From: an uncultured virus (IMG/VR IMGVR_UViG_3300006922_000014)
Lineage: Duplodnaviria > Heunggongvirae > Uroviricota > Caudoviricetes
Direction: 5' to 3' (one strand)
Length of the DNA: 64,000 bases
Virus record (IMG/VR): IMGVR_UViG_3300006922_000014
The stretch's first letter is position 1. Every line of letters begins with the position of its first letter. The position numbers and the translations under genes were made by a program. The notes beneath the pieces are model-generated. The model was given only the letters and a program-made list of their open reading frames with translations, was not told the origin of the DNA and did no database searches. This document shows, piece after piece, positions 3,601-21,233 of this stretch.

Positions 3601-4275
3601 ATGTCAACAATAGCAGAAGTAGTATCAAGAGTAAGGGGTCAAGTCAAAGCAGAAGTACAAGACGCATTTATTACAGATAGATATATTTATAGTTTGATAG
3701 AAAAGTTTGCTCAGATATTAATGAGAAGACAAGATTATGCAAACAAATTAATGAAGTTTAATTCAGTGTGGAAAGCTTTACCATATGTAGAATTAATAGA
3801 AGTAGATAAAGTAGAGGCTGGTTGTTCTGGAATAACAAGTGGTTGTACAATAAAAAGAACAAAGCATAGATTACCTAGTATGATAGAAGGATACTGGGGT
3901 CCTTTAATCCGTACAGTAAGTTCTATTGACGGATCTCAAGAGTTACAAGCAACACAGCCGGGTACATATACTTCAATGACTAAAACAACCACATTTAAAT
4001 ATAATAAAACATTATATTTTTGGTGGTTAGATGGGTATATATATTCTCCCAGTATTGAATGGGACGCATTAAAACTAGAAGGAGTATTTAATTCAGACAT
4101 TACAAGATGGAATTGTGATTTAGAAGATGACTGTACACCTAGATATGAACAACCAATATACATTCCAGAAGCGCTTTTTGCAGAGATAGAAGGTCAAGTT
4201 ATTCAGACAATGATTGGATCAATGCAGATACCTTCAGAAGATTCAGATAATAAACGTAATATACATAGACAATAA
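3601..4275 (+). CDS. Tail ring/adaptor protein (crAss-like tail tubular protein)
   Basis: Size (224 aa), position before the muzzle gene, and ring-protein-like termini (MSTIAEVVSRVR...YIPEAL...SEDSDN). Confidence 0.6.
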   Translation: MSTIAEVVSRVRGQVKAEVQDAFITDRYIYSLIEKFAQILMRRQDYANKLMKFNSVWKALPYVELIEVDKVEAGCSGITSGCTIKRTKHRLPSMIEGYWGPLIRTVSSIDGSQELQATQPGTYTSMTKTTTFKYNKTLYFWWLDGYIYSPSIEWDALKLEGVFNSDITRWNCDLEDDCTPRYEQPIYIPEALFAEIEGQVIQTMIGSMQIPSEDSDNKRNIHRQ

Positions 4276-5228
4276 TGGGCGTATCAAATAAATACAGAAC
4301 GTTTAGTCAATTAATGGAGGATGTATCCATTGACTTTTCTAATTATGCATTAGAAGGGATGATTGAACCACAACAATTAATTAAGGTTGCAACTAGAGTA
4401 AACTATGATTTAGGTTTAAGAATACATAGAACAAAAGAAGTTGTTTTAGATATAGAGCATGGTAAAGCTCAATTGCCATCTGATTTTGCATTTATAAATT
4501 ATGCATTTAGATGTGGGTCTTATGTAATTAATAATAGCATGCCTTCAGGTACCCATGTTGAAACATTTAATGATGTACCTTACGTTCCTGCACCAACTGA
4601 TGCAGCACCTTGCGAGGATGGTCAAACATGTAAAGATGTATGTGTTGTTAAAACATGCAATGACAAAAATGAGTATCAACTTGTTCAACGGGTAGGTCCA
4701 TCACAATACAGACAGTTTAGTAGTTGGACTCAGCTTAGAATACAAAATGTAAACGATCCAACATGTTTTTGTCCTGCATTAGGAGCACAAGCTTTAGATG
4801 TTGCTGAGATAAAAGATGGTTATATGATAACTACATTTAAAACAGGAAAGGTTTATATAAGTTATCAAGGAGCAATGGAAGACGCTAATGGAGATTTACT
4901 TGTTCTAGATCATCCTTACTGTAATGAGTATTATGAGTATGCAGTAAAACAAAGGATTTTAGAAAATATGCTATGGCAAGGAGAAAATGTTTCACAACAA
5001 ATAGGTTTTGTTGAAGGTAAACTTAGAGCAGCAAGAAATAATGCACTTGGTTTTGTTAACACTCCAGACTTTGCTGAGATGAGAAAAGTATGGACAATGA
5101 ATAGAAGAGCTCAATATCATAATTATTATAATATGTTTTTAAGTTATGCTCCTGCAAATCCTCAAGTATCTGGACCAGCAGTAATAAACAGTAACGGTAC
5201 GTCTGCTACTACAACTGGATATAATTAA
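4275..5228 (+). CDS. Second tail ring protein
   Basis: Translationally coupled to the previous gene (TAATG). Contains AQLPSDF and GKVYISYQG...DGDLLV-type segments typical of adaptor/ring proteins. Confidence 0.55.
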   Translation: MGVSNKYRTFSQLMEDVSIDFSNYALEGMIEPQQLIKVATRVNYDLGLRIHRTKEVVLDIEHGKAQLPSDFAFINYAFRCGSYVINNSMPSGTHVETFNDVPYVPAPTDAAPCEDGQTCKDVCVVKTCNDKNEYQLVQRVGPSQYRQFSSWTQLRIQNVNDPTCFCPALGAQALDVAEIKDGYMITTFKTGKVYISYQGAMEDANGDLLVLDHPYCNEYYEYAVKQRILENMLWQGENVSQQIGFVEGKLRAARNNALGFVNTPDFAEMRKVWTMNRRAQYHNYYNMFLSYAPANPQVSGPAVINSNGTSATTTGYN

Positions 5229-5248: not shown

Positions 5249-8200
5249 ATGGCAAAGAAGAAGTCTACATCAAAAGCTAAAGCAACACAAGCATCATCTA
5301 AAAGTAGTTCTAGTGTAAATACTAACATGTTTACCAAAGGAATGAATAAAGATGTAACACCGTCTTTTGAAAAAAATGATACTTGGTACCATGCTGTTAA
5401 CGCAGCAAATAATAGTTCAGATGGTGACCTGGGTATTATTGGTAATGAGCCAGCTAATTTACAATGTGGTGTTATACCTTACACTATTATAGGAGCTATA
5501 CATAGATATGGTGATGAGTGGATTGTATATTCTACTGATAATATTAGTTCAGAGATAGGAAGATTTGATGATAGTGAATGTAAGTATGAGACAATAGTTA
5601 ATGATCCATGTTTAAATTTTAATAAAAAGTTTTTAATTAGCGGTGCAGCAAAAGAAAATTTTGACTGTTCTTGGCAAGTGTATTGGGATGATGGTAACAA
5701 TCCATCACGCTCAATGAACATAGATGATGTACCATACATACAAGATATAGTATCAGCTCCAGGTGATCCATGTATTATTTATGAGGATACTTCTTTTTTA
5801 GATTGTGAAAAAATAAGATTACATCCTCTAGTAGATACACCTTGTCTTAAACTTACTAAGGCAACAGATGGAGGTACTATTATAAATGGAGCTTATCAAG
5901 CTTATATAGCTTATACTGAGAATGATCAGGTTATATCAGACTACATAGGAATATCAAACATCCAAACCATATGGTCACATAGAGGTACGAATGGATCACT
6001 TGATATAGAAATTGATGGTTTAGATAAAGATTACTTTTATTTTGATTTAGTATTACTAATAAGACAGCAAGGACAAATATTTACAAAACTTATAGGTAAC
6101 TATAGTACTGAATCAAAACATATAAATATAGACTATATAGATGATTCACTTATATCTATACCAATACAAGAAATATTTAGACAGTCACCCGCATATGAAA
6201 AATCAGAGGCAATGTACGTTGTCAATGATTATCTTATAAGACAAGGACCAACTGAACAATTTGATTTTAATTATCAACCTCTTGCAAATAATATAAAAAC
6301 TAATTGGGTTATCAATGAGGTAAGTAATGATTATTATATAAACTCAGGTAATAAATTAGGATACATGCGAGATGAGCAGTATGCATTTTTTATTAGATGG
6401 ATATATAACACAGGTGAAAGGTCTTCTTCATATCACATACCAGGTAGAGCATCTAAGGATTATACTTTACCTAATGGGGTAGTTGAAAATGAAAGAACTA
6501 TAATATCTGGTCCCAATACATTAGATCCTGCAGGTGATCCTTTATTTAAAGTTTATAATACAAGTTCTGTAGGTGCTTTAGTTAATGAGGCACAAGATGA
6601 TGGATCAAGAATAATAGCTAGAGGTGATATGGCTTATTGGGAATCTACAGAAAAGTATCCTGATAAACAACCTGAAATATGGAACTCAAGCTCACATACT
6701 TGGTCAAATGAATTTGATCCGGGTGCAGACTTATGTGGTGAATTTATCAGACATCATAAAATGCCTAATGAAATGGTTAATCCTGTATTAGGTTTAACAG
6801 ATGGTACGGATACAGGTATATACATATTAGGCGTAGAATTTTCAAATATAAAAAGACCTGTATATAATGATGGTAGTCCTATTACAAATATAGTAGGTTA
6901 TGAATTACTTAGAGGGTCTAGATTAGGTAATAGAACTATACTTGCTAAAGGTATGTTTAAAAACATGCGTGAGTATGATTTACCAGATAGTGAAAATTTA
7001 ATTGGTGATGCTCAAGGTCTATATCCTAATTATCCTTTTAATGATTTAAGGCCTGATGTGTTTCACACAACAGTTAGAAAAACAACAGGTTGTGACAATG
7101 GAGGTCCATTTTCTGGTTCTGCAATTAGTGATTTTCCACCTCTATCTGGTTTTAGAGAAGATGTTTTTACATTTCATTCACCAGATTTAATGTTTACTAA
7201 ACCATATTTAAATGCATATGAAACAGTATTCTATGGTAAGATAACTGGAGAATCATCGGGTTACTTTAAACCATCAGAGAAGCATCCTCAGTTTAAATTA
7301 CTAAGAAACATTAGTGCTATAATTAGTGCATTAATAGGTGTAGGTTATGCTTTAAGAAATATCAATGGTACACCAGATACTAAAGCATTGCCAGTTCAAG
7401 GTATTAACACTGCTTATCCTGAATGGAGAATTGACGAAAGAGGTGGAGGTGGTGGAAATTGGAATGACTTTGCTTCATCCGTAACTCCAGGAGGTGTTGC
7501 AACTGCTAGTACATCAGGTAATATTAGTAGTCACACTGGTGGTGATGGTAATAATAATTATAAAGGAGCTGGTGCACAGACTGATGCAAACGATGCTATT
7601 AATACATATGTATCTAGTCAAGGTGGTGGAGGTATTGGAGGCTGGTTAGGTGGCCTTTTAGATTTGTTTACTGGTGGCATTCAAGATGTTCAAGATTTAA
7701 CAGGATTTGGAGATAGTACAAAAGAAAGACTAAATCAGTTGGCTATAGATAACATGTCAGATACAGGTTCTACTGCTAATGGTGGTCTTATGGGTGGTGG
7801 CTCTCAAGAAGGAGTGACATTAGATACCTCAGAATCAAACTTAGGTAAATTATTTAAAAGAGCTTTTGGTTTTGCATTACTCCAAAAAAATATTGCAGTT
7901 GGCGGTCAAGAAATAATAGATTTATTATATAACCTAAATTCTTTTCAGGAACATGTTTTAAAATATAATGCATATGGGTTCTATAATGATTTTGATGCCC
8001 ATCCTTTAAACATAACATTTAGAACATTAAATGAAGCAGCTAATTATATAGGTTCTTCATTCCAAACATTTGATCAAAATAAATATAAAATAAATAATTT
8101 ATTTAGACCTACTACTGTAGCAATTTCAACTAAAGATAATATATCTTCAAACTATGGTGTAGAAGATAAATCTAGATTTGCTTTAGGTGGATTCTTTAAT

Positions 8201-11200
8201 AGTAATGGTACTGCGTCAACACCAAATTGGCAAAGTAATTTAAAAAATCCAGAAGGTCCATATAAAAAACCTATATCTGCATTGTATGGTGCATTAAAGT
8301 TTAACATGGATAATCAGTATGGTCAACTTGATGGTATAAAACAAATACAGCAAAGAGGTTGTGTAGAAAAAGTAGATCAATCAGATCCAGCTAATTTAAA
8401 ATATACAAGTAAAGCTTTATTTAGTGGTGATGTATTTATTTCTCACTACACTGAAAAATCTATTATGCCAATTTTTACTGACTTTTTAATTGGTCAGTAT
8501 GATGGATATCCATATGATTATTACTTAAGATACAATGTACCTTTTCCAAGATTTTGGCTTAACAGTAGAAAGTTTGATATGGCCGGTATGGCCACTACAA
8601 TAAGTTCTTTTGGATTCAATGAACTGTTTGGTGGTAATGATATTGATGAGACTTTACCAAATGAATTATATTACTTAGATAGAGGTGATACTTGTGGATG
8701 GAACTTACTATCACTTTTTACTTCTGATGGTTTGAATAGTGCGTTTGCTATGAACCGTGCATACATGTATAGTCACATAAATGGGGTAAATGATTTTTAT
8801 GTTGAAACAGAAATTAACTTACCGTATAGAGATTGGGAAGAACCAAAAGAAAGAAGATTTTATGACAAGTATGATTACAATGATTTAGATGATTTGTTTC
8901 ATGCTGAAATAGAAAAATTTGATAACTTTTATAAGTATGACGAGTCTCTAAGTCCATCTAAATTTATCAGTCAAAACAGTACGTTTGCAGAGCTACAAAC
9001 AAAAGACTATGACCCATACGTTGCAGAAAATTGTTATGTCAATTATCCTAAGAGATTAATATATTCCTTACGTGCTGAAGAAGAAGATAGAAGAGATTAC
9101 TGGAGGCAGTATCTATTTGCTAATTACAAGGACTTTAAAAATAAAGTATCTGTCATAAAACCTTTTAGTAAGACGGGAGCATTAATGTTTTTCCCTTATC
9201 AATCACCACAATTATTTCAGGGTGTTGATACTTTAAAAACAGATGCTGGTACTAAAATAACAATAGGTGATGGTGGATTGTTTAGTCAGCCTTTACAGAA
9301 TATAGTAAATAGTGATTTATCAAATGAGTATGGATCACTAGAAAATCAACGTGGTGTTATAAACACAGCAGCAGGTTTATTTTTTATATCCCAAGCTCAA
9401 GGTAAAATATTCCAATATACTCCAGGCAAAGGCTTAATTGCTATATCAAACCAGGGAATGAAATGGTGGTTTAATAAATATTTACCTTCTAAATTTTTAA
9501 AACAATTCCCAGAAGCAGAGGAAACAAAATGGATAGACAATCCAGTAGTTGGAGTTGGTTGTCAAGTCATGTATGATCCAAATGATGATATAGTCTACTT
9601 TATGAAAAAAGACTATTCAATGAAATCTCAGTATGCAATAAGAGCAACTCTTACAGATAGATTGACTGCACCAATTGATATTACTCTTGGTGGTAATGTA
9701 GTTGCTGTTGAGATAGGAGATCCTATATATTTTGATGATTGTTCTTGGACCATAAGCTATGATCCAAAAGCAAAAGCATGGATTTCATTTCATGATTGGC
9801 ATCCTGAATTTGCATTGCCAAGTATAAATCATTTCTTTACAACAAAGACTATTGAGACAGATATACCACAATGCCCTCCAGGTTATACTTTTAATTCAAC
9901 AACTGGGTTATGTGAAGATATTATAAATATAACTGAGCCACGTGAAGTAACAGTAGATGATATACCTGCAACTGTTACAGGTGGTCCACAAAATTGTTTA
10001 TTAGATATTGTAATTGCTATAGATGCATCTGGTAGTACAGGTAATCCAGGCCCTGGTCAAAATACTTTAGCAGATGCAGAATTAACATGGTTGGTAGCTT
10101 TTATAAATGATCCTGCTATACAAGCAGCATTAACTGCAAATACTATGCAGATAGGATTTTTAGCTTGGGCAACTAATTCAGCTCAAGGAAATCCAACTGG
10201 GACAGGACAGTCTATGTTAGGAGCTGTTACTGGAGCTCAAGCAAGAACTTGGTTTCAAAATAACTGGTCAGGTCAAAATGGTATAGGTGGTCAAACTAAT
10301 GCACAACTTGCAAGAACTAATGGGTTAGCACAGCTTAATAATAAAGCAGGATCAGCTTACTCCGCTGCCTATCCAGCAAGAAGTGCTGATCCTTTCTTTA
10401 GACAAATTTTAATTGTAGTAACAGATGGTAATGCAATTACTTCAGGTAACAATACATTAACTCCACAAAGTTTTAATTCTTTACAAAGTCCAAATGTTAT
10501 ACCTGGAGCAGGTGGTCCAGTTAATCAAGAATTAATGTCTGTATTTGTAGGTCCAAATGCAAATGGTCCAAATAATTCAACCATTATTGATCAAATAACA
10601 GTTGGTGCTGGTGCGGGTCCAGCTAATGCATATTATAATGCAGGTCCTCCAATAACACCTGGGCCAAATCAATTTATAATGAATGCAAGTGTTCCAGCAT
10701 CATTGCAGGCTACAGCACAACAAATAGCAGCTCAAGTTTGTACTATTCCATTTACTTGTGATTGTCCAGCAGGGTATACTTTAGTATATCCAAATGCTAC
10801 TAACGGATTTTATACAGATCCTACAGGAACATGTGATGATGTAAATCCACCTATTTGTAGACAGGTTGAATGTCCTGACTGTCCACCAGGTCCAACAAAT
10901 ACAACAACAACTACATTAGGAAGTTGCCCAGATACATTCCCTGAATTAGGTCTTATAGGAGACCCTAACTGGGTAGACCCTACACCTCCATTGTGTAATT
11001 ATTATTATGCAGACTTTGTGCAAGCTAATTACCAAGTTGGTTCATTCTGGAGACATAATGTAAGGTGTGATTTATTTGCCAATTACTATGGTGAAAGTTT
11101 CCCGTGGGAAATAGAATTAATATCAAATACAGGTCAGACAGTAAATACTATTAGAAGTATAGAATATCAACTAGAAACATTTGTTTATAAAGGAGAACCA

Positions 11201-11656
11201 GAATACAATATGTGTGGGGGAGATAAATGGGAAGATCTTTTATTTAATTTTGATAAAGCAATTATTTATAATACAGAACAGGTATCAGGATTACTGAATA
11301 TAGAAATGCAACCATTTAATAATCCATGGGCAGAGAATGCATACCCTATAGTTAGCCCTAATGACATAACTGTTCTTTCTAGTAAAGTAGAACATAAGTT
11401 TAGAATAAATCAGTTTTATGATATTACAAATGATAGAGGTGAATTTTCTAACGCAGAACAATCTGTATTTGATACACAATGTAATGGATACATTAGGCCT
11501 TTAAATCAAACTAATCTAAATTACTTTAAGAGTCCTACTCAGCATAAAAAGTTTAGACATTATTCTAATCATGTTTTATTAAGAAGACAAGAATCTGGAA
11601 ATAGAAAAATGCTATTAAGATTAGACAATACTAAATTATTACTATCAAAAAGATAA
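5249..11656 (+). CDS. Muzzle / tail stabilisation protein (P22 gp10-like) with an inserted VWA domain
   Basis: N-terminal FTKGMNKD, GYMRDEQYAFFI, FTFHSPD and WTISYDP...WISFHDW are characteristic of crAss-like muzzle proteins. A VWA motif (DIVIAIDASGS) lies near the C-terminus. Confidence 0.7.
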   Translation: MAKKKSTSKAKATQASSKSSSSVNTNMFTKGMNKDVTPSFEKNDTWYHAVNAANNSSDGDLGIIGNEPANLQCGVIPYTIIGAIHRYGDEWIVYSTDNISSEIGRFDDSECKYETIVNDPCLNFNKKFLISGAAKENFDCSWQVYWDDGNNPSRSMNIDDVPYIQDIVSAPGDPCIIYEDTSFLDCEKIRLHPLVDTPCLKLTKATDGGTIINGAYQAYIAYTENDQVISDYIGISNIQTIWSHRGTNGSLDIEIDGLDKDYFYFDLVLLIRQQGQIFTKLIGNYSTESKHINIDYIDDSLISIPIQEIFRQSPAYEKSEAMYVVNDYLIRQGPTEQFDFNYQPLANNIKTNWVINEVSNDYYINSGNKLGYMRDEQYAFFIRWIYNTGERSSSYHIPGRASKDYTLPNGVVENERTIISGPNTLDPAGDPLFKVYNTSSVGALVNEAQDDGSRIIARGDMAYWESTEKYPDKQPEIWNSSSHTWSNEFDPGADLCGEFIRHHKMPNEMVNPVLGLTDGTDTGIYILGVEFSNIKRPVYNDGSPITNIVGYELLRGSRLGNRTILAKGMFKNMREYDLPDSENLIGDAQGLYPNYPFNDLRPDVFHTTVRKTTGCDNGGPFSGSAISDFPPLSGFREDVFTFHSPDLMFTKPYLNAYETVFYGKITGESSGYFKPSEKHPQFKLLRNISAIISALIGVGYALRNINGTPDTKALPVQGINTAYPEWRIDERGGGGGNWNDFASSVTPGGVATASTSGNISSHTGGDGNNNYKGAGAQTDANDAINTYVSSQGGGGIGGWLGGLLDLFTGGIQDVQDLTGFGDSTKERLNQLAIDNMSDTGSTANGGLMGGGSQEGVTLDTSESNLGKLFKRAFGFALLQKNIAVGGQEIIDLLYNLNSFQEHVLKYNAYGFYNDFDAHPLNITFRTLNEAANYIGSSFQTFDQNKYKINNLFRPTTVAISTKDNISSNYGVEDKSRFALGGFFNSNGTASTPNWQSNLKNPEGPYKKPISALYGALKFNMDNQYGQLDGIKQIQQRGCVEKVDQSDPANLKYTSKALFSGDVFISHYTEKSIMPIFTDFLIGQYDGYPYDYYLRYNVPFPRFWLNSRKFDMAGMATTISSFGFNELFGGNDIDETLPNELYYLDRGDTCGWNLLSLFTSDGLNSAFAMNRAYMYSHINGVNDFYVETEINLPYRDWEEPKERRFYDKYDYNDLDDLFHAEIEKFDNFYKYDESLSPSKFISQNSTFAELQTKDYDPYVAENCYVNYPKRLIYSLRAEEEDRRDYWRQYLFANYKDFKNKVSVIKPFSKTGALMFFPYQSPQLFQGVDTLKTDAGTKITIGDGGLFSQPLQNIVNSDLSNEYGSLENQRGVINTAAGLFFISQAQGKIFQYTPGKGLIAISNQGMKWWFNKYLPSKFLKQFPEAEETKWIDNPVVGVGCQVMYDPNDDIVYFMKKDYSMKSQYAIRATLTDRLTAPIDITLGGNVVAVEIGDPIYFDDCSWTISYDPKAKAWISFHDWHPEFALPSINHFFTTKTIETDIPQCPPGYTFNSTTGLCEDIINITEPREVTVDDIPATVTGGPQNCLLDIVIAIDASGSTGNPGPGQNTLADAELTWLVAFINDPAIQAALTANTMQIGFLAWATNSAQGNPTGTGQSMLGAVTGAQARTWFQNNWSGQNGIGGQTNAQLARTNGLAQLNNKAGSAYSAAYPARSADPFFRQILIVVTDGNAITSGNNTLTPQSFNSLQSPNVIPGAGGPVNQELMSVFVGPNANGPNNSTIIDQITVGAGAGPANAYYNAGPPITPGPNQFIMNASVPASLQATAQQIAAQVCTIPFTCDCPAGYTLVYPNATNGFYTDPTGTCDDVNPPICRQVECPDCPPGPTNTTTTTLGSCPDTFPELGLIGDPNWVDPTPPLCNYYYADFVQANYQVGSFWRHNVRCDLFANYYGESFPWEIELISNTGQTVNTIRSIEYQLETFVYKGEPEYNMCGGDKWEDLLFNFDKAIIYNTEQVSGLLNIEMQPFNNPWAENAYPIVSPNDITVLSSKVEHKFRINQFYDITNDRGEFSNAEQSVFDTQCNGYIRPLNQTNLNYFKSPTQHKKFRHYSNHVLLRRQESGNRKMLLRLDNTKLLLSKR

Positions 11657-14600
11657 TGGGAAGAAATAAAAGCATAGGATTAAAAGGAGGACCAAATGAA
11701 ATAATTATTGATCCAAAAGGACAATGGAATCATCCAGGAAAAAACACACGTATTGAAGGTAATCACATTACTATGCAAGATGTGCAATATCCAGTGTGGG
11801 CTCAACCTAACATTGGTCCTGGAACAATGATGATGCCTGGTAGTGAACACTATTTTAAAAATGCAGATTATGTAGATGAATATCCCATGGCTCAAAATGG
11901 CATAGAAATTCCAAAAAGAAAGGGTGTAAGAATAAATGAGGATGGAAGTGTGTCTACACATCTAATGAAAGCTGAGACAGTTGATGGTAAATGGTATGGG
12001 TTTCCATCATTATTCCAAAACTCTAATGGAGAATGGATAGATATGTCAGGTGAGAAAGATTGGATGAATATATATAATGAAGCAAAAAAAAGAGGTGAGC
12101 TTATAGAATTTGGAGATGATGCAGAAAGTGCAATAAAGTTTGCAGAAGGTTCTTGGAAACCTAAGGCTCAACGTGGTGGTAGTGCATTACCTAAAGCTCA
12201 AGATGCTGGTAGCACTTCTACGCCAACAAAGCAAATTGAGTTTATGACTAATTGGGCAAATTCACCAATGCATAATCAAATGTTAAATGCTAGTTCTACC
12301 TCAGATAAATTTAAAGATAAAGTTAAGATTGCAAGAAATAACTTTAAGAATGTAAATATATCTGATGATGAAGTTGATGGTTTTCTAGGACAGTATATTA
12401 ATGGTCAAATAACAATGAACCCTTCACTATTGGAAGAGGCTAGAATAGGCAATGGTTATGATAGCGTTCTTGTTCATGAATTGTCACATTTTACTGATGA
12501 TGGTGACCCTGATAATAAGGGTTATTTTAAAGTAAGTAATATACCTTTATCTGACCGTAAACTAATTAAAAAATATGGTAAAGAAGGAATAAAACGTGCA
12601 AAGAAAGAAGAAAAAGAACTTAATGAACTATTATTGTCTGAAGGGTTAACGCCTAATGATAAAGAATTTCTTGAAGAAAGAATTGACCGTCTTAGATATT
12701 TAAATAGAGATACAGAAACAAGATCAAGAATAAATGCTACAAGATATTTTTATGAAGAGGATGAAAACTTTGGTAGAAGTAGTGAAAGAAACATAGACAA
12801 AAACTTACCAAGTATATTTGATTCTAAGGTAACTCCTGAGATGATCAAGGTTATGCAACAGAGTGGGCAGTATAAACAGTTACAAGAAATTTATACGGAT
12901 GATCAGATACTAGAATTATTTAATACTATATCAGATAGCAAAACCCCAGAAAGAAGCTTTAATGTATTAAACGCAAGATATGGAAAAGAATTACCAACTG
13001 CTCAAAAGGGGAAAAGTATAATAACAGCATTATTAAAACAAGCTAAAAAATGGGCTCCAAGTGTTTTTGGAAAAGCAGACGATGTAGCTAAAAGATCAGA
13101 TAATGTAGTTAAAGCTGTTAGCAATACTTCTAAAAAAGGTTTATATGAAATGTTTCCTATTAGACAACTAGATGCACCTACAAATTATGGTACTGTAAAG
13201 GTAGATGATGGTACTATACAAACTGCTTTAGATGCAATGAAAGCCCAAGGAAAGTATGCTGATGATGTAGGATATAGCATAGATGATTTAGTAGGTAGTG
13301 ATATTCAGTACTTAGGTGATGTGAGTGGCAGAACTATTGTTAATGTGCCATTACCAGATGGCAAGAGTCAATTGTTTTATAAATCTTCAGGATTGGCTGG
13401 TAAAAGAGGAAGTGGTGTAGGAGGCACATCAGAAGGATTATGGCAACCCTATGGGGGTCATGCATCTGTTAGTGATTTTCCAGGCCGTGGTTATGTAGAG
13501 AATTGGTTTATAAAAGATTCAGGTTATGCAGACTATTATGGTAGTGAATCATTTAAAAACATAGCTAATAAATTAGGTGAAATAGGAAAAGAACAAGGAT
13601 GGGATATGTCTAATCAAATACTAAAAAGTAAATTGAAGTATGGTGGAGAAGATCTACCAAAAGCTCAACGTGGGTTAATTAAACAGCTCATAAAAAGTGG
13701 AGCTAAATATGCAGATGAGATTATACCAACAATAAAAAATTATTTTAAAGGCGTTGATGATGCAGGTGAATTTGTATCTGAAATTAATTGGGGTAAATGG
13801 AATAAAACAATACCAGATAATAAACCCCTCATGGAAGAGTATGCAACAATTGAAAAGGTTGGTAAAGCAAAAGGTACTTGGATGAAGAATCCTGATGGCT
13901 CTAAGTTTACAGGTACACCTGAGCAATGGGTACAACAACAAAGTAGTAATTATAAAGCAGCTTTTGGTGAAAGTAAATTATTAAATCCTGATGGCTCACC
14001 TATGAAACTTTATCATGGATCACCTAAAAAGTTTGATGCTTTTGATGAGTCAATGTATCAATTAGGTGACTCAGGTTATTCTGGAGCAGGGATATATACA
14101 ACACCTAGTAAAACAACCGCAAATAGTTATACAATATCTGGCAAAAGATTTCATGATGGAGAAATTGAGCCTACTCTTTATGAATTATATGGAAGGGGAA
14201 ATAATCCTATAACGTCAAAGCAATTAATAGATAACTCTGGGGGAGATATAGGATTTGGTAAAGTTGGAGAATTAATTGATAAAAATTTACCTACAAGTCT
14301 TTTTAATTTTCATAGAAAAGGAGCTCCAAGAGTAGATCAGCTTTTACAATATGATGTTGCAATAAAAAATCAAAATAGAGGTATAAGTAATATTAGGCCA
14401 ATTGAAAATGCTTGGGAAATTGTTTTTCCATCTAATAAACAATTAAAATCAGCAGTAGGTAACAATGGTATGTTTGATATGACTGACCCCAATATATATA
14501 AACAAAATGGTGGAGAGTATGATCCATATTTTGATATTGATGATAAGTCTAAACAAAGAAGAGAAAGATTAAATGCTGCATTAAAGAGAGTAGTTGCTAA

Positions 14601-15219
14601 TTCAGATAATGATTCAGATTTAGAAGCATTGTTGTTAATGACTGCTGCTATGGAAAATTCATTTGGTGGAAATTCTGATGCATATGGTAGAAATTATACA
14701 AGAGGACCAATGTCTATAGATGATGCAGCCTACAATGATTTGTTTGATCCTAGAGGTGAAAATAACAGATACACAGCTCAACAAAAAAAGATGTTTGATT
14801 GGTTAAGTTCAATGGGTTTAGATCCTACAAATATGAACAATGCATTAAAAGCAGGAGATGAATTAGCAGGAATGGCTGCTGCTAGAATGCAATACGCTAG
14901 ATCTCCTGAGAGTTTACCTAGCTCACAAGACCCAAATGCAATGTATGACTATTATATGAAATTTTATAACAAAACAGATGCTGATCATAAAGAAAGATTT
15001 ATGGGGAACTATAATGCATTTATTAAACCAAAGCTAAAAACTGGTGGTGAAGATGATCCATATAGAAGATATAAGAAATATGTAAATGGTGGGTTTGTTG
15101 GATCAGATGAAGATAAAAAAAATTATGATAAAATAAATAGAATCAATTATGCAGATGCTAAAGCAGTAGGTATGACTCCTGCAAATTACATAATGACTGA
15201 GTTATCTAAGCGTTCTTAA
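11656..15219 (+). CDS. Modular (polyvalent) virion cargo protein with zincin-like, ADP-ribosyltransferase-like and lysozyme-like modules
   Basis: VLVHELSH (HExxH); LYHGS...GAGIYTT...ANSY (ART-like); LLMTAAMENSFG...AARMQYARSPESLP...YYMKFYN (lysozyme-like). Modules are separated by xxxGG/LPKAQxG linkers. Confidence 0.65.
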   Translation: MGRNKSIGLKGGPNEIIIDPKGQWNHPGKNTRIEGNHITMQDVQYPVWAQPNIGPGTMMMPGSEHYFKNADYVDEYPMAQNGIEIPKRKGVRINEDGSVSTHLMKAETVDGKWYGFPSLFQNSNGEWIDMSGEKDWMNIYNEAKKRGELIEFGDDAESAIKFAEGSWKPKAQRGGSALPKAQDAGSTSTPTKQIEFMTNWANSPMHNQMLNASSTSDKFKDKVKIARNNFKNVNISDDEVDGFLGQYINGQITMNPSLLEEARIGNGYDSVLVHELSHFTDDGDPDNKGYFKVSNIPLSDRKLIKKYGKEGIKRAKKEEKELNELLLSEGLTPNDKEFLEERIDRLRYLNRDTETRSRINATRYFYEEDENFGRSSERNIDKNLPSIFDSKVTPEMIKVMQQSGQYKQLQEIYTDDQILELFNTISDSKTPERSFNVLNARYGKELPTAQKGKSIITALLKQAKKWAPSVFGKADDVAKRSDNVVKAVSNTSKKGLYEMFPIRQLDAPTNYGTVKVDDGTIQTALDAMKAQGKYADDVGYSIDDLVGSDIQYLGDVSGRTIVNVPLPDGKSQLFYKSSGLAGKRGSGVGGTSEGLWQPYGGHASVSDFPGRGYVENWFIKDSGYADYYGSESFKNIANKLGEIGKEQGWDMSNQILKSKLKYGGEDLPKAQRGLIKQLIKSGAKYADEIIPTIKNYFKGVDDAGEFVSEINWGKWNKTIPDNKPLMEEYATIEKVGKAKGTWMKNPDGSKFTGTPEQWVQQQSSNYKAAFGESKLLNPDGSPMKLYHGSPKKFDAFDESMYQLGDSGYSGAGIYTTPSKTTANSYTISGKRFHDGEIEPTLYELYGRGNNPITSKQLIDNSGGDIGFGKVGELIDKNLPTSLFNFHRKGAPRVDQLLQYDVAIKNQNRGISNIRPIENAWEIVFPSNKQLKSAVGNNGMFDMTDPNIYKQNGGEYDPYFDIDDKSKQRRERLNAALKRVVANSDNDSDLEALLLMTAAMENSFGGNSDAYGRNYTRGPMSIDDAAYNDLFDPRGENNRYTAQQKKMFDWLSSMGLDPTNMNNALKAGDELAGMAAARMQYARSPESLPSSQDPNAMYDYYMKFYNKTDADHKERFMGNYNAFIKPKLKTGGEDDPYRRYKKYVNGGFVGSDEDKKNYDKINRINYADAKAVGMTPANYIMTELSKRS

Positions 15220-15249
15220 ACCTTTAAAATTAGTGATTCTAAGTAATTA

Positions 15250-15268
15250 TTTGTATATTAATAATATA
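15250..15268 (+). promoter_or_regulatory. Candidate late promoter TTTGTATATTA-ATAATATA
   Basis: Exact copy of the recurring 11-mer, just upstream of ATG 15274. Confidence 0.55.
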
Positions 15269-15273
15269 ATATT

Positions 15274-18200
15274 ATGAGTTTGAAAGTAAACAAAAAAAGT
15301 TTAAAACAACAAGGTGGACAGATGATACCTGAGCAACCTGGGATGCAGCAGCAAACGCAGCAACCACAGGTTGATCCAAAGGTTATGGAAATAACTCAAG
15401 TTATAAGTCAATCAGTTCAAGAAGGTCAAGATCCTAAAGATGTTATTTCAAGTCTACTAGAAAATCAAGTTGATTCTCAGATGATTGCGCAAGCATTAAT
15501 GGTTGCAGGAATGAAAGAAGAACAAATAATAGCTTTATTTGATTCTATTGAAGAATCTAATCAACCTTCTCAGCCTGATCAAGTATCTAACAATCCTCAA
15601 CTACTTGCAAGAAATGAAAGTTTACAAACTCAAGATCAACAAGGATCTCCTGAAGAGCAGATGATGATGCCAATGGCACAAGCCGGGACAGAAACAATTA
15701 ATGATTACTGGCAAAATGCTAATGGTGACGTTGAAAGGCAAGATTTGGATGAAGTTACTATTACAGCAGATAATAGATCATGGTTAAAAAAATTAACGGA
15801 TAATGCTTTGTATAATATTAATCCTTTATACTTGGCTGATGACGCTTTACAGGTACTAGGTATACCTGCTAACTTTATAAGAGAAGGTGTACAAGGTGTT
15901 TTTGACAAAGGAGATGGTTCATTTGATTGGGGTAATATTATACCAGATATACGTAACACTACTATATTAGATGATGATCCGTCTCAAGAGGGTGTATCTA
16001 AATCATTAGGTGTAGATAATTTTTGGGGAGCTCTTGCAACAGATATGGTATTAGATCCTACTACATATATTGGTGCAGGTGTTGTAAAGAATTTGCTAAA
16101 GAAAGGATTAAAAACAGGTAGTAAAAAACTTGCACCTAAACTTCTTAATAAGGTTGATGATGGATTAAAAAGAGCACCCGGTGAATTACCTGAGGGTGTT
16201 AGCATTATTGATATATTTAAACAAAATTTAGATGATGCAGATAACGGGCTTAGTCAAATTGATGATCTTGAGAGAAAAGAGATAGAAGATTTTCTAAATG
16301 TATTTAAAGAAGACAAAGCAGCTAGATCAGCTGAATCAGCAGCAGAAAAAGAAGCACGGGATTTACTTGATAATCAAATGATAAGAGACAAGTACTTTGA
16401 TGATGTTGCTGGTTTGGAAGATGAGGATATAAGATTTATGATTGACAGAGGTGATGTCCCATCAGATGTTATTGAAAGATTAATAGAAAGCAGAAGAGGA
16501 AATTTGACAGAAGATCTTATTGGAAATCAGCAAGGTAGAAGCAGTCTTCTTGATGAATTCTTAAAAAGAAAAGACATACCTTCAGATGTAAAGTCTGATA
16601 TGATAGATATAGATTATCTGAACATAGGAAATAGACGAGAAGACGTTAAAGATTTTTTAAAGAAAACAGGTATTGATAGTGATAATTTTCCAACAGGTGG
16701 AGAGCCTAGAAGCTATGCAGTTGGAGGAGAAAAACAATATATAAATGGTGTTTACTTGCCTGACGAAAAAGATATTGATGATAAATATTTAGACAAGAAT
16801 ATTAATAGAGCTGTTGAGTTCTATAGTGGTGTTGATCCTACATTAGGTTTAGCTCCTTTAATGCCACCGCCAAAAACAAATATATTTTTAGATACGCTAC
16901 AAACTGGTGTAAGTATGTTTGCAGATGCAAAAAGTGCATTTGGAGGATATAGTGAAAGACAAGAAGAATGGGCTAATAAGCTACCGTCTTTTTATAAATA
17001 TGATGTAAATACAGAAGGTGTATTTGAACCTGAGAATCAAATGAAAATTAAAGATTGGGCACAAACTCAATTTGATGAATGGCAGGCAGAAACAGACAAA
17101 AATGTTGCAAGTTCTAATAAAGAAAAAGCAAGTATTTTAGGTACTACTGTAGACAAAATGATTAATGGTCAAACATTTGAAGAATATAATAGAGAGCAAG
17201 GTCAAACAGTTGTTGGTAAAACAGCTGAAGAAATAGCCACTATGCAAGACTTATATAGGGCCGCTGCTAAAAAAGCTAGAGGTGGAGAACAATCTTTACC
17301 AAAAGCACAGTATAATCTTCCTGACTGGATGTATGGTAAAGATGGGGCTGAGTATGATATGGGTGGATCAGATTTCAATCCTTATACAGATAGTCTACAG
17401 GATATGATGAAAAATTCTGGTCAAACAAACTACATGGAGGATTTAATGAATACTACACCTCCAAGAAAATCAAGCAATCAACCAACACAACCCGTATCTA
17501 ATAAACCGCCTGTTAGAACTGCAGATGATAAATTTGGTGACATTACTTTACCGGAAGCCAGAGTGTCTAATCCTTTAAGCGGTACATTAGATGCTATTGC
17601 AGATAGTCCTTTATACAATGCTTATACAGCAATGTCAAACTTTGCTGTCAAAGGAGCAGGTTTTTATAATAGAAGGATGGCAGAGCGTGATTTTAAAAGA
17701 CAATATGATAAGCTTGAGTTGATGGGTGGTGCTGATTTTGCTTATGATACTAAGATGTCTGATCCTATGAGTGAAGGTTATTATGGTTTAAATGATGGAC
17801 GTTTACAAGGTGAAGCGGAAAGAACAACTGGTTACTATATGAACTTCCAAGGATCTCCTACTCAGTTTGGTGGGGCAACAGGAACTGCAAAAAAAGGTGG
17901 TGAGTTTGAAGCACATATGATGTTTGATCCTAAAACAGGTAAAGGATATAAAGCCAATCAACCTGCTGATCATGAAAGAATGAAGAAACTAGGTTATCTT
18001 CATAAAGATGAAATGCAAGATGGAGGACCTATTACACCAGAAATGAAAGCTTATCTTGATGCCCTTGCATTCAATAAAGAAGCAAGGCAAGCTATTGGTA
18101 CTAATGATAGAGAAAAACTAAAAAAATTAAGATTAGATAAACCATATAATACTAACGACCTAGCAAGAGATTTTCATGAATTACAACAACTAAGAAAAGC

Positions 18201-18378
18201 AGCAGGCTTGGGTGCAATGGAAGAAGCCTCTATTATTTTTCCCCATGTAGGTCAACAAATAAGAGGTGGTATTAATTCAATCCTAGGAACTAATTTTGAA
18301 CAGGGTGGAGAAATAGAAGTTGATAATGATACATTAGCTGCATTAATAGCAGCAGGTGCTGACATAGAAATATTATAA
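15274..18378 (+). CDS. Modular virion cargo/ejection protein
   Basis: Gln-rich N-terminus, a hydrophobic LATDMVLDPTTYIGAG segment and about 8 xxxGG-type linkers. Located in the cargo gene block. Confidence 0.55.
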   Translation: MSLKVNKKSLKQQGGQMIPEQPGMQQQTQQPQVDPKVMEITQVISQSVQEGQDPKDVISSLLENQVDSQMIAQALMVAGMKEEQIIALFDSIEESNQPSQPDQVSNNPQLLARNESLQTQDQQGSPEEQMMMPMAQAGTETINDYWQNANGDVERQDLDEVTITADNRSWLKKLTDNALYNINPLYLADDALQVLGIPANFIREGVQGVFDKGDGSFDWGNIIPDIRNTTILDDDPSQEGVSKSLGVDNFWGALATDMVLDPTTYIGAGVVKNLLKKGLKTGSKKLAPKLLNKVDDGLKRAPGELPEGVSIIDIFKQNLDDADNGLSQIDDLERKEIEDFLNVFKEDKAARSAESAAEKEARDLLDNQMIRDKYFDDVAGLEDEDIRFMIDRGDVPSDVIERLIESRRGNLTEDLIGNQQGRSSLLDEFLKRKDIPSDVKSDMIDIDYLNIGNRREDVKDFLKKTGIDSDNFPTGGEPRSYAVGGEKQYINGVYLPDEKDIDDKYLDKNINRAVEFYSGVDPTLGLAPLMPPPKTNIFLDTLQTGVSMFADAKSAFGGYSERQEEWANKLPSFYKYDVNTEGVFEPENQMKIKDWAQTQFDEWQAETDKNVASSNKEKASILGTTVDKMINGQTFEEYNREQGQTVVGKTAEEIATMQDLYRAAAKKARGGEQSLPKAQYNLPDWMYGKDGAEYDMGGSDFNPYTDSLQDMMKNSGQTNYMEDLMNTTPPRKSSNQPTQPVSNKPPVRTADDKFGDITLPEARVSNPLSGTLDAIADSPLYNAYTAMSNFAVKGAGFYNRRMAERDFKRQYDKLELMGGADFAYDTKMSDPMSEGYYGLNDGRLQGEAERTTGYYMNFQGSPTQFGGATGTAKKGGEFEAHMMFDPKTGKGYKANQPADHERMKKLGYLHKDEMQDGGPITPEMKAYLDALAFNKEARQAIGTNDREKLKKLRLDKPYNTNDLARDFHELQQLRKAAGLGAMEEASIIFPHVGQQIRGGINSILGTNFEQGGEIEVDNDTLAALIAAGADIEIL

Positions 18379-18380
18379 TT

Positions 18381-21233
18381 ATGGCAAAAGTTAAAATAAA
18401 CAAATTACCTAAAGGCTTCCATATAGTTGATGGCAAAGTAAAGAAAAAAGCTTTAAAAAGAGATGGTGGAATGGTAACTGGTGATCAAGCAGATTACGGT
18501 TTAATTACAACACCACAAGAATACTATGGTCAAACAAACTTTAATAATGATCTAGATGATTCAGTTAGATATAGCCTATCTAGTGTGCCTAGAGATGAAG
18601 CAAACATTGAAGCAGAGGGTGGTGAGACTGTACTAACAGACTTAAGTGGTGATGGTCAATTTGGTTTATATAGTATAACTGGACCAAGACATTCAAGTGG
18701 AGGTGTGCCAATGTATTTGCCAGAGCAATCTTTTATTTATTCTGATACTGCAGGGTTAAAGATGGATAGAAATGAACTTGCTGAGTTTGGTATAGAAAGT
18801 AGAAAAAAAATAACACCAGCACAAGTATCTAAAAGATATCAACTCAATCCTTTTTATGGAGTTATTAATGATCAGTATGCTGATAACATATCTACAGCAA
18901 GTGCTGAATTAATGCTTAAGAAAAATATGAGTAACTTATCAAAGCTAGCCTTTGGTCAAGAAGTCAAAAAGAATTTTGAAGATGGTGTACCTTTAGCATC
19001 ATACCCATACTTAGTAGAAAAAGGCATTGACCCAATAGAGTTTGCTGCTACAGTAGAACAATCAACTAAACAAAAACAAGAGTTAGAATTATTAGCATCA
19101 TTGCCACCAGAGCAACAGCAGCAAATGTTACAGATGCAAGCTATAATGGAGAATATAGACGGGCAACCACAGCAACAAGATTCTGTAGATCCACAAATGG
19201 TAGATCCTAATAATCAAATTCAACCAACAGCACAAGAAATGGATCAAGCTCCAGCTGCTGAGTTTCAAAAAGGTGGAGAAAAAGCTTCTGAATATGCTAA
19301 ACGCAGAGGACAAGACTGGCCAGAAGGCGTTAAAGATCCTACCTTTGATGGTAAGGTCTGGGTATTTGATGATGGTACTCCTCCTTTAAGTAAGTCAGCT
19401 GCTATGCAATTGGCAATGAGTGTTAAAGGCACAGGTAATATTCCAGAACAATATAGAACTGAGAATGTAGAAATACAAGAAGAAGTAACTGAACAACCAA
19501 CAGAGGTTAATCAAGAAGTAACAACAGAAGCATCAACAGATGTAGAAGATGGTTCTATAGATGAGTCAGGTACTAGTCTTAACACTTCAACTGCAAAACC
19601 TATTGATAAAAACCCATTACCAAAGACACACCCTCAATGGCAAGAGTTTGAGGATGCTGTAAATAATGGTTATAGAATTGTTGCTACTAGAGATGAAACA
19701 CAGGGTGTTACAAACTATGAGGCTATAGAAGTTTTACCTCCTAACAAGTTTGAAAATTTTGTTCAGAATGAGCAGAAACAACTAGAAACAAAAGGAACAG
19801 GTAGTATAAGTGTTATTAGTAAAGAAGATGCTTCTTTAAATGCCGTGTATGAAGGAGCAGATGATAATAATGTTAGGATAAGAAAAGGTATGTATTCTGA
19901 CCAGGACAGACCTAAAATGCAAGGTTGGATGGGTGAAGATTCTAATTCATTTGGTGGTGACTTTACAACTCCTGAAGCTGAAGCTGATTTTAATCTACGT
20001 TACGGTGATGACCTAAAAATCATGATGCCTAACTTTAATTACCAAATGAAGTCAGGTGTATGGAAGAATGGTAAACCTGTAAATGAACAAGCTAGAAAAT
20101 ATAAAGCTCATTGGATTGAAGCACAGACTTTAATGCAAGAAATAGAAAACAAAAATCATTATGAGATATTTGGAAAAGATGCAAAAAGTAAACCTAGAAT
20201 ATTATTTCCATGTAAAGGAAGACCAGGAACATGTGTAGATGGTAAATTAGGTTTTGATACTTTTAATAAAGGTAGAACATATGTACGTGTAGAAAAGCCA
20301 AATATATTAAATGCTAGTGTTGAAGATGAAAGAACACCAACAAGTAGCGGAGACATAATAACAGAAAAACAACCAATGCCTGATTGGTGGTGGCAAGACC
20401 TTAATAATATAGCAACACAAAATTCATTAGAGAATCCGTTGTTTATGCCTAATGTGACTAAACTACCACAAGAAAGAGTAAACTATGTTCTTGATGATTG
20501 GACTGCAAAAGTAAATGCAATAAATGCAAATACTGGTCAGTATATGAAAAACCTTAGAGGATATGGTAAAGGTAAAGTAGCAGGTACAAATGCATTTGGT
20601 AAAGGTGCTGAAGAAGCAGTAAAAGCAATTGCTAGTACTAATACTAATAATGTAGGTATTATGAATAATGCTGCGAGAACACAAGCTGATCTTAATTTAA
20701 GAACAGGAGTTTTCAACGCCAAACAACAAGATGAAGAATATAATGGTAGTATAAGAGCACTGCAAAGATTTGTTGATTTTGAGAATTGGGATAAAAAAGA
20801 ATCTAATAAATTATATAATGAAGCTATAACAAACAGGGCTAATACATATAATTTAAATATGCTTAAAGACTATATGGAAATAGATCCTAGCATTGGTGGT
20901 ATGCAAGTTAAAAAAGCAGACAAACCTTTTGAGGTAAATAAAGATGACCGAGAGGATTGGCAGATAAGACAAGATAGACTGATAGAGATTGATAAAAAAA
21001 CATCTGAACTTTATCCTAATGCTACAGTAGAAGAGAGGATGAAAATGAATCAATATTTCTTAGATGGCACACCTCTAACAGGTAAAAAAACAGAAAGAAG
21101 AAATCCTTCATCTGAAGAAGATACTGATTTCAATATTCCTTCAGTTACAGTACCAAACACAACAGTTGGTAAGAAAGGTGGTAGCATGAAACGTTTTGCA
21201 AACCCTTTCTATACAGGTAAGATGGGGATATAA
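18381..21233 (+). CDS. crAss-like cargo protein 1 homologue
   Basis: ANIEAEGGETV...GPRHSSGGV...FIYSD is a motif I recognise from crAss-like ejected cargo proteins. Has a Gln-rich linker. Confidence 0.6.
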   Translation: MAKVKINKLPKGFHIVDGKVKKKALKRDGGMVTGDQADYGLITTPQEYYGQTNFNNDLDDSVRYSLSSVPRDEANIEAEGGETVLTDLSGDGQFGLYSITGPRHSSGGVPMYLPEQSFIYSDTAGLKMDRNELAEFGIESRKKITPAQVSKRYQLNPFYGVINDQYADNISTASAELMLKKNMSNLSKLAFGQEVKKNFEDGVPLASYPYLVEKGIDPIEFAATVEQSTKQKQELELLASLPPEQQQQMLQMQAIMENIDGQPQQQDSVDPQMVDPNNQIQPTAQEMDQAPAAEFQKGGEKASEYAKRRGQDWPEGVKDPTFDGKVWVFDDGTPPLSKSAAMQLAMSVKGTGNIPEQYRTENVEIQEEVTEQPTEVNQEVTTEASTDVEDGSIDESGTSLNTSTAKPIDKNPLPKTHPQWQEFEDAVNNGYRIVATRDETQGVTNYEAIEVLPPNKFENFVQNEQKQLETKGTGSISVISKEDASLNAVYEGADDNNVRIRKGMYSDQDRPKMQGWMGEDSNSFGGDFTTPEAEADFNLRYGDDLKIMMPNFNYQMKSGVWKNGKPVNEQARKYKAHWIEAQTLMQEIENKNHYEIFGKDAKSKPRILFPCKGRPGTCVDGKLGFDTFNKGRTYVRVEKPNILNASVEDERTPTSSGDIITEKQPMPDWWWQDLNNIATQNSLENPLFMPNVTKLPQERVNYVLDDWTAKVNAINANTGQYMKNLRGYGKGKVAGTNAFGKGAEEAVKAIASTNTNNVGIMNNAARTQADLNLRTGVFNAKQQDEEYNGSIRALQRFVDFENWDKKESNKLYNEAITNRANTYNLNMLKDYMEIDPSIGGMQVKKADKPFEVNKDDREDWQIRQDRLIEIDKKTSELYPNATVEERMKMNQYFLDGTPLTGKKTERRNPSSEEDTDFNIPSVTVPNTTVGKKGGSMKRFANPFYTGKMGI

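Follow-up and report, generated by a model that had tools for sequence, protein, structure and literature searches.

The stretch of DNA analyzed here (the window; 64,000 nucleotides of IMG/VR record IMGVR_UViG_3300006922_000014) is part of an uncultured marine crAss-like phage with a GC content of ~0.33. Three consecutive genes downstream of its muzzle gene, which encode proteins of 1,187, 1,034, and 950 amino acids (p1187, p1034, and p950), carry a two-part junction peptide in which a helix-capping aromatic/basic-x-Gly-Gly closes one module and [LIV]-P-(K/M/T)-A-Q-x-Gly opens the next. In its full form, the element reads K-[YF]-G-G-x-[LIV]-P-K-A-Q-x-G. The peptide is real. Very divergent phages have kept it at the protein level, it marks the points at which modules are swapped or inserted, and its occurrence is limited to the block of genes downstream of the muzzle gene. 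The three genes are as follows.

11656..15219, plus strand: p1187, a 1,187-aa mosaic polyvalent-type protein, first gene after the muzzle gene
15274..18378, plus strand: p1034, a 1,034-aa mosaic protein without a Pfam or PHROG family, with a conserved N-terminal leader and a conserved C-terminal tail
18381..21233, plus strand: p950, a 950-aa conserved, nonmosaic protein from a family of at least 773 unannotated proteins

The initial annotation had described one uniform linker recurring through these proteins. Each of the 17 linker strings that it listed was found once, at the position assigned to it, but the strings are not of one kind: four loci are composite, two carry only the AQxG half, and about 11 are GG-only sites. 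We ran a chance test on the 28 open reading frames (ORFs) of the window (20,176 aa), in which motif counts in the three proteins (3,171 aa) were set against those in the other 25 ORFs (17,005 aa) and in 2,000 shuffles. PKAQ occurred four times in the three proteins and not at all elsewhere, GGE occurred 10 times and not at all elsewhere, and [KRQ].GG[EDSQM] occurred nine times and once elsewhere; none of the 2,000 shuffles reached any of these three counts. Plain GG, on the other hand, occurred 29 times (22.5 expected; 94 in the other ORFs), a count reached by 171 of the 2,000 shuffles. Among the window ORFs, the enrichment stands for PKAQ and GGE but not for plain xxxGG, which is at chance level and by itself carries no signal.

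A hidden Markov model (HMM) of the motif, built from 29 instances taken from distant relatives only and run on all ORFs of the window, placed the four composite sites at the top of its ranking (16.4, 7.4, 7.0, and 3.4 bits), followed by a match of 0.4 bits. Shuffled proteomes (n = 100) gave on average 0.05 matches of at least 3.4 bits. The same phage is represented in IMG/VR by a further contig of 78.9 kb (100% identity over p1187 and p1034), which we also used and which together with the window yields a genome of ~116 kb. The DNA pattern of the motif matched this contig once, inside p1187; neither the capsid protein nor any other place in this phage beyond the cargo block gave a match. In a complete relative, LPKAQGG appears in a 226-aa ORF of the replication block (L340, 3503-4198; G005), where the preceding GG is missing; this occurrence is probably due to chance.

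BLAST comparisons with relatives showed that p1187 and p1034 are mosaics, and swaps, insertions, and ends of similarity bear out the modular architecture that had been claimed for them. In p1187, five of the six sites have an internal end of similarity no more than 3 aa away, an outcome matched by 59 of 10,000 random site sets, and in p1034, six of the eight sites do (17 of 10,000 random sets). In p950, only FQKGGE, one of three sites, lies at a joint, which is not significant; the idea that linkers fall at module boundaries thus holds for the two mosaic proteins but not for p950. Internal ends of high-scoring segment pairs (HSPs) were within 12 aa of a site in 41 of 84 cases in p1187 (12.6% expected) and in 18 of 31 cases in p1034 (17.8% expected). 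Swaps occur at these joints: L003 replaces module 88-175, L002 replaces the ART module, and L009 has ~350 aa extra at residues 953/955, exactly at the KQNGGE site. Degenerate sites are the positional homologues of full motifs in relatives. Among 11 relatives with Pfam domains, all 27 motif sites are outside the envelopes of the domains listed. Four proteins have a LysM domain that begins 7 to 10 aa downstream of the motif, and in another case two motifs flank a SET domain. In the AlphaFold model of p1187 (mean predicted local distance difference test [pLDDT] score, 58), five of the six sites have a pLDDT of <50, and the sixth is in a coil between helices.

The motif is widespread in related phages. 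Related IMG/VR loci (347 distinct ORFs) contained 37 distinct PKAQ contexts, which are K rich and then have [YF]; glycine occupies position −4 in 23 of 37 contexts, position −3 in 18, and position +5 in 29, and L, V, or I occupies position −1 in 34. Over 714 ORFs, PKAQ was observed 237 times, compared with 4.8 expected from composition. The back-translated DNA pattern was found in at least 143 IMG/VR stretches, and in the first 80 loci, 73 of 73 distinct contexts were in frame, in ORFs of 345 to >2,000 aa, many of which had two or three. The choice among synonymous codons varies freely (Pro, CCT 80 and CCA 62; Ala, GCT 80 and GCA 59; Gly, GGT 74 and GGA 54), so selection acts on the protein and not on the DNA, and a DNA-level repeat or recombination signal was rejected.

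We also considered a cellular origin of the motif. A scan of 596 Gb of bacterial and archaeal genomes gave 121 stretches, mostly with high GC contents and short or out of frame, which is the picture expected from chance, and this origin was rejected. Among the 23 contexts in ORFs of at least 300 aa, the only ones that looked genuine by eye were L244, L248/249, and L270, along with L300 and L309, which have short flanks; these exceptions are low-GC, phage-like contigs. A tblastn search of the linker against 50,697 GenBank phage records for cultured carriers returned only chance matches to rIIA, and LPKAQ is absent from crAss001 gp45 to gp47 and from phi14:2 g065 to g071. The literature on Crassvirales cargo and polyvalent proteins yielded no description of the peptide, and the string LPKAQ was found only in nonphage papers. 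The junction peptide is apparently undescribed so far.

The placement of the motif within ORFs is asymmetric. Among 78 motif-bearing ORFs, the PKAQ half lies in the first 30 aa in 7, at 6 to 13 aa from the start codon (3.2 expected; P = 0.04), and is never within 40 aa of the C terminus (3.4 expected; P = 0.03). As there is nothing to separate at a terminus, a pure separator would not be expected to persist there.

A second recurrent peptide, GGWL(D/N)KY, was observed in a sister clade (L033, 9830-12631; L035, 6824-10681; L036, 8798-11020). It is found near N termini, ahead of VPKAQ motifs, and at the extreme C terminus of several proteins (..QPGGWLNKYN*). GGWL occurs 37 times in 546 ORFs, 8 times within the last 15 aa.

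p1187 comprises modules at residues ~1-77, 88-168, 186-440 (with HELSH, a weak zincin), 453-655, 706-948 (ART-PolyVal), and 955-1127 (SLT-like, phrog_3108) and a tail at residues 1133-1187. The ART-PolyVal domain was detected by Pfam at residues 779-940 (E = 3.7e-13), and phrog_3108 was detected at 968-1124. Its six sites are as follows.

11887..11901, plus strand: MAQNG, AQxG half-motif after the N-terminal module; pLDDT <50 over residues 78-92
12163..12210, plus strand: KAQRGGSALPKAQDAG, doubled composite motif, flanked by module 88-168 and the HELSH module; 7.0 bits; pLDDT <50 over residues 165-202
12973..13011, plus strand: ARYGKELPTAQKG, composite variant (YGK, PTAQ) in a coil between two predicted helices; 3.4 bits
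13633..13674, plus strand: LKYGGEDLPKAQRG, composite motif in its canonical form, with a conserved amphipathic helix after it; 16.4 bits
14500..14517, plus strand: KQNGGE, GG half-motif with the ART module on one side and the SLT-like module on the other; pLDDT <50 over residues 936-960
15034..15051, plus strand: LKTGGE, GG half-motif ahead of the conserved C-terminal tail

In nine collinear relatives, the MAQNG column reads [FVIM]P[MLK]A[QK]xG, with VPKAQYG in L015, and the K.GGE column of LKTGGE is kept as GG[ES] in all nine. L061 has KQFGGNIPKAQNE in the KQNGGE column. The ARYGKELPTAQKG site is a similarity break in no relative, with the nearest HSP end 73 aa away. The canonical motif and the amphipathic helix (13657-13770; p1187 aa 668-705; LPKAQRG-[LI]IK.[LI].K..A.Y.D....IKN.F) travel as a unit of ~45 aa that is placed differently in relatives, after module 88-175 (aa 180-232 in L041/L047). 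The p1187 tail (15052-15219; ..Y..Y..G.Y.G...YDKLNR..Y..) is conserved although the middles of the relatives differ.

The sites in p1034 are as follows.

15304..15318, plus strand: KQQGG, in the N-terminal leader LKQQGGQMIPEQPG; kept in three of six aligned relatives; no module joint
15673..15687, plus strand: MAQAG, AQxG half-motif that closes module 1-131; MPTAQYG in L002 and L003
16687..16731, plus strand: FPTGGEPRSYAVGGE, two GG sites ahead of the module that begins at residue 488; the column reads APKAQNGTETGQYINGV in L015
17272..17313, plus strand: KARGGEQSLPKAQY, composite motif; 7.4 bits; KYGGxLPKAQ in the same column in L004 and L061
17887..18027, plus strand: AKKGGE ... MQDGG, two GG sites that bracket a conserved mini-module of ~40 aa (EFEAHMMFDPKTGKGYKA...KKLGYLHKDEM)
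18295..18312, plus strand: FEQGGE, ahead of the conserved C-terminal tail

The degenerate site YAVGGEKQYINGV aligns with APKAQNGTETGQYINGV in relatives, and L033 has KKTPKAQVG at the position of MQDGG. Module 134-294 recurs inside the p1187-like proteins of L041, L046, L047, and L049. A 92-aa insertion (residues 919-1010) lies after EMQDGG and before GGEIEVD; the relatives have EMQG-GGEIEVD at this point. The mini-module GGEFEAHMMFDPKTGKGYKANQPADHERMKKLGYLHKDEM (17896-18021; p1034 aa 875-916) has conserved His residues and recurs, bracketed by GG sites, in L004, L061, L033, and L035. As in p1187, the tail GGEIEVDNDTLAALIAAGADIEIL (18301-18378) is conserved although the middles of the relatives differ.

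The sites in p950 are as follows.

18456..18470, plus strand: KRDGG, with G29 and G30 invariant in 73 aligned family members; inside the conserved N-terminal segment; no joint
19263..19280, plus strand: FQKGGE, degenerate junction motif between a Q-rich disordered stretch (residues 258-294) and a confident fold from residue ~296
21168..21182, plus strand: GKKGG, part of the conserved C-terminal tail KKG..K..A.PFYTGKMGI; no joint

The FQKGGE column reads YGAEMLPKAQDS (L004), GGELSKAQAG, and YGTELNKAQEG in orthologues. FQKGGE and similar strings recall the C terminus of prokaryotic ubiquitin-like protein (Pup), but a Pup-like reading was rejected, as general Pfam scans contained no ligase or deamidase family. 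All three proteins (p1187, p1034, and p950; ~135, 115, and 107 kDa at full length) have basic N termini with GG at aa 10-11, 14-15, and 29-30, respectively. The best-conserved part of p950 is aa 1-123 (18381-18750), with M1, A2, I6, L9, P10, G29, G30, GDQ (34-36), EAEGGETVL (77-85), and GPRH..GGVPM (101-111). AlphaFold predicts that the invariant N-terminal 120 aa are unfolded when alone (pLDDT, <50), which fits a segment that folds on a partner. By eye, the p950 pattern G-x-x-H-x-x-GG-[VI]-P resembles EGGSHEENP in crAss001 gp45 and EGGKHETNSLGGIPQ in phi14:2 g070. The p950 tail (21183-21233; ..K.FA.PFYTGKMGI) is again conserved although the middles of the relatives differ.

The surroundings of the three genes are those of a crassvirus structural block, with the following features.

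3601..5228, plus strand: tail ring proteins R2 (3601-4275) and R1 (4275-5228), two ORFs upstream of the muzzle gene
5249..11656, plus strand: crassvirus muzzle protein, 2,135 aa (Pfam crAss_MUZ, E = 8.4e-29), directly upstream of p1187
24714..38288, plus strand: 4,524-aa ORF with DFDxD in GADFDIDKV (aa 3544) and HExxH (aa 2054), without the junction motif

ORFs of 1,136, 4,524, and 1,915 aa lie downstream of p950. The 4,524-aa ORF probably encodes a fused virion RNA polymerase polyprotein: DFDxD is a hallmark of crAss virion RNA polymerases, according to the available text of a preprint. It resembles a fusion of proteins that are kept separate in crAss001 and phi14:2; a search against PDB sequences gave 0 matches. 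The order of the muzzle protein, the smaller proteins, and the giant polymerase proteins is the same in the window and in crAss001, where the cargo genes likewise follow the muzzle gene and precede the giant RNA polymerase proteins. From this synteny, we infer that p1187, p1034, and p950 would be virion cargo and the counterparts of the crAss001 cargo proteins. The ring proteins are 82 to 92% (R2) and 78 to 86% (R1) identical to those of relatives, far above the cargo modules of the same phages. Two side observations were made in this block: a Gly-rich hydrophobic stretch of the muzzle protein, GGGGIGGWLGGLLDLFTGG (aa 792-811; 7622-7700), resembles the predicted transmembrane region GSAIGGWLGGNRK of crAss001 gp45, and a 1,167-aa structural-block protein of the same phage, outside the window (L333, 14837-18337), has collagen triple-helix repeats in six stretches (Pfam Collagen, E = 1.5e-38).

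In crAss001, gp45 and gp46 are the cargo proteins C1 and C2 found in virions, which are kept within capsid and tail and ejected before the DNA, as far as the available text of the structural study describes (PMC10172136). gp45 docks on the tail barrel with residues 214-245 (12 copies), on the portal wing with residues 425-552, and on the muzzle with a 14-residue segment (PMC10172136). We noted five aromatic/acidic-GG sites in gp45: AYGG (207-210), AEGG, AFGG (329-333), AFGG (425-428), and AYGG (560-563). Two of the docking segments are bounded by such sites, as segment 214-245 starts after AYGG (207-210) and segment 425-552 starts at AFGGWLNTQGG (425-435), to which the GGWLDKY..GG.VPKAQ.G of the sister clade is akin. 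Unlike the proteins in the window, gp45 has no LPKAQ half and is not reported to be mosaic, and the available text does not treat the GG sites as a motif.

The second close comparison is with polyvalent proteins, mosaic polypeptides that are delivered with the DNA and combine unrelated effector domains (Iyer, Burroughs, Anand, de Souza, and Aravind 2017, PMC5512222). By that definition, p1187 qualifies with its family-defining ART-PolyVal domain, its SLT-like module, and its HExxH module, and motif-bearing relatives have LysM, SLT, amidase, SET, and YkuD domains. The zincin hub of polyvalent proteins is weakly detectable in p1187 and does not track the motif. In its available text, the polyvalent-protein paper describes no conserved junction peptide and leaves linkers unmentioned (PMC5512222). 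Foldseek searches with the p1187 model gave only weak ART-like and SltB3 rows.

More distant parallels exist. The capsid targeting sequence of phage T4 is carried by IPI to IPIII and Alt and is removed by the prohead protease gp21. Like the junction peptide, whose carriers would be packed and injected, it is a short peptide on proteins that enter the head and are injected, and in some relatives LPKAQxG lies 6 to 13 residues from the start; the difference is that no prohead protease family was found here and that the motif is mostly internal and repeated. Polymorphic toxins have junction motifs, such as VENN in CdiA and PxxxxDPxGL in Rhs proteins. These too are short conserved peptides at the border between constant and exchangeable parts, where cassettes are swapped. 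However, polymorphic toxins are secreted bacterial proteins with one junction before a C-terminal toxin, whereas each of the phage particle proteins considered here has many junctions, and immunity genes are absent.

Our favored interpretation, held tentatively and at somewhat less than even likelihood, is that the peptide is a recognized junction or a handling or docking tag; it is preferred over cleavage, a passive hinge, and a host-directed motif. It corresponds to the half of the initial annotation in which the modules are tagged for capsid loading. LPKAQ is nearly invariant, and the glycines have a fixed spacing, while the flanking modules diverge or are replaced, which argues for a common reader. 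Under the handling-tag interpretation, a common partner would read LPKAQ as a peptide, and the peptide would serve as a handle for bringing each module into the particle, keeping it there, or threading it out, resembling the short gp45 segments that dock on the portal, tail barrel, and muzzle in crAss001. It would not be cut inside the virion. Complex predictions of R1 and R2 with p1187 residues 650-705, chosen by analogy to gp45 residues 214-245, had a score of 0.00 and provide no evidence either way.

Several observations weigh against a handling tag. The motif copies per virion would, by our estimate from crAss001, exceed the 12-fold docking sites there. The cargo status of the three proteins rests on synteny. 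p950 and gp45 have no detectable similarity (BLASTP E = 0.42), the p950 family profile gave 0 matches against PDB sequences, and Foldseek searches of the PDB with the p950 and p1187 models gave none at an E value of ≤0.001. As 43% of p1187 has a pLDDT of <50, the placement of five of six sites in such regions is only mildly unusual (binomial, ~0.06). crAss001 and phi14:2, the only cultured relatives examined, lack LPKAQ. The statistics of the terminal asymmetry are weak (P, ~0.03 to 0.04), and overall, GG is no more frequent than expected among the final 12 aa (36 of 401 versus 33 expected).

The other half of the initial annotation, that the GG sites are cut as in adenovirus and African swine fever virus (ASFV), shares with those systems Gly-Gly in particle proteins, but the analogy fails on both of its testable features: the consensus is absent from the sites, and no clan-CE protease like the adenovirus protease or ASFV pS273R was found. 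The adenain rule, (M/L/I)xGG-X or (M/L/I)-x-G-x-G, fits 0 of the 17 listed sites; it is matched elsewhere by LKGGP (p1187 aa 9), LMGGA and IRGGI (p1034 aa 816 and 996), and three type 2 sites. More generally, the joints may be processing sites that are cut between GG and LPKAQ in the procapsid, in the virion, or after ejection, thereby freeing effectors. The cutting enzyme would be a co-packaged zincin (either the p1187 HELSH or, in the 4,524-aa ORF, the HExxH at aa 2054), a DUF2201_N metallopeptidase, or a host enzyme. Consistent with processing, the sites are exposed, flanked by Gly, and present at every module boundary, and natural gene ends fall inside the motif (ORFs that start with M..LPKAQxG or end with K[YF]GGK..K or GGWLDKY). 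HELSH has subthreshold similarity to Peptidase_M91 (18.9 bits; cutoff, 25; E = 0.002) and M48 (16.5 bits; cutoff, 20.3; E = 0.0077). Residues 204-301 have an AlphaFold pLDDT of <50. The module with HELSH can itself be swapped as a cassette, and among the relatives only L002 and L003, which are close ones, have it. HExxH is no more common near the motif (7 of 21 loci with the motif versus 14 of 39 without it, at ~20 kb per locus, so that distant giant genes are missed), and the motif-rich loci L033, L056, L059, and L061 have no HExxH within ~20 kb. Pfam scans of the 28 window ORFs and 48 further ORFs of the phage, including the head block, found no prohead, C5, C39, or C48 protease. When five records with the motif (two complete) were searched for protease families, Peptidase_S78 (PF04586), ClpP (PF00574), C39, and C48 (PF02902) were each found in none; S77 (PF03420) and C5 (PF00770) were also found in none, but their controls were silent and these two results have little weight. 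The only peptidase-like gene in the Pfam scans has DUF2201_N plus VWA and lies in the replication block. DUF2201_N is present in four of the five motif-bearing records and in both complete ones, in favor of processing; crAss001, which lacks LPKAQ, has gp77, annotated with a metalloprotease domain, in the same block, and if gp77 is DUF2201_N, this family would not explain the motif. The 4,524-aa fusion, the protein most in need of cutting, is without the motif, and most maturation sites of phages, such as L/I-x-E in T4 and S/A/G-x-E in phiKZ, are shorter than this 13-residue element, in which 4 core residues are invariant. In the accounts available, the zincin cleavage of crAss polyproteins and polyvalent proteins is a proposal made without data, the DdrB protein of phage P1 is processed before packaging, and the N4 virion RNA polymerase with its MPTase is packaged uncut. 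Virions of crAss001 gave gel bands of ~58, 85, 100, 150, 270, and >300 kDa (Bayfield et al. 2023, PMC10172136), which match full-length masses of 60.2, 90.8, 154.5, 262.5, and 276.9 kDa, although the available text does not give the band identities and the supplements searched contain only spectra. The structure paper models gp45 as a single chain from capsid to tail and, in the available text, never mentions cleavage (PMC10172136). A cutting mechanism is unsupported, and we regard processing at the joints as rather unlikely.

It is also conceivable, but in our judgment unlikely, that the peptide is a passive hinge and recombination junction, i.e., a linker composed of a helix cap, a turn, and a helix start that lets modules fold and unfold separately during threading through the tail and has no reader. 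GG indeed follows predicted helices (H651-657 and H1111-1128), a helix starts after the motif (H669-682), and swaps and insertions occur exactly at GG. The ejection of partly unfolded cargo is, moreover, the published model for crAss001, as given in the available text (PMC10172136). A hinge, however, does not need an invariant P-K-A-Q and three glycines at fixed spacing across phages whose modules are 30 to 50% identical or unrelated; with varying synonymous codons, DNA homology is not conserved either, and at N termini, where the motif is kept, nothing is linked. A host-directed short linear motif, by which a conserved Bacteroidota protein, such as a periplasmic or cytoplasmic chaperone, a translocation factor, or a protease, would pull in, position, or activate the modules after ejection, seems very unlikely. 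The Tol and TonB boxes of colicins are a model for such a motif. This possibility is in line with the conservation of the peptide across phages with very different ring and cargo proteins (R1 of L033 and L037 is only 21 to 22% identical) and with the many flanked modules that act on the envelope (LysM, SLT, Amidase_2, YkuD, and lysozyme), but there is no candidate host partner, and the clade, for which Flavobacteriia are probable hosts, has no known host. Quite improbable, finally, is a combined loading-and-release code, in which [LIV]PKAQxG would be an N-terminal loading or threading tag for each module and the aromatic-GG/LPKAQ bond would be cut by a co-packaged zincin, in the capsid or after ejection. 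The zincin may be the HExxH of the giant RNA polymerase polyprotein or a cassette zincin such as HELSH. If this were true, one gene would deliver a set of free effectors, the gene boundaries inside the motif would mimic the cut, and the system would be a crassvirus counterpart of the T4 targeting sequence and gp21, without the prohead protease.

Crass-like phages belong to the most abundant viruses known. For the question of how such phages bring megadaltons of protein into the particle, keep them there, and release them, a near-invariant 13-residue peptide at the joints of exchangeable modules is a concrete, mutable handle. Its reader, whether a virion part, a protease, or a host factor, would show, once found, how the cargo is handled. 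With the motif as a marker, the limits of effector modules can also be drawn in hundreds of genomes of uncultured phages. Should it prove to be a loading tag, foreign proteins might be packed by means of it into the particles of phages that are grown on their hosts in the laboratory.

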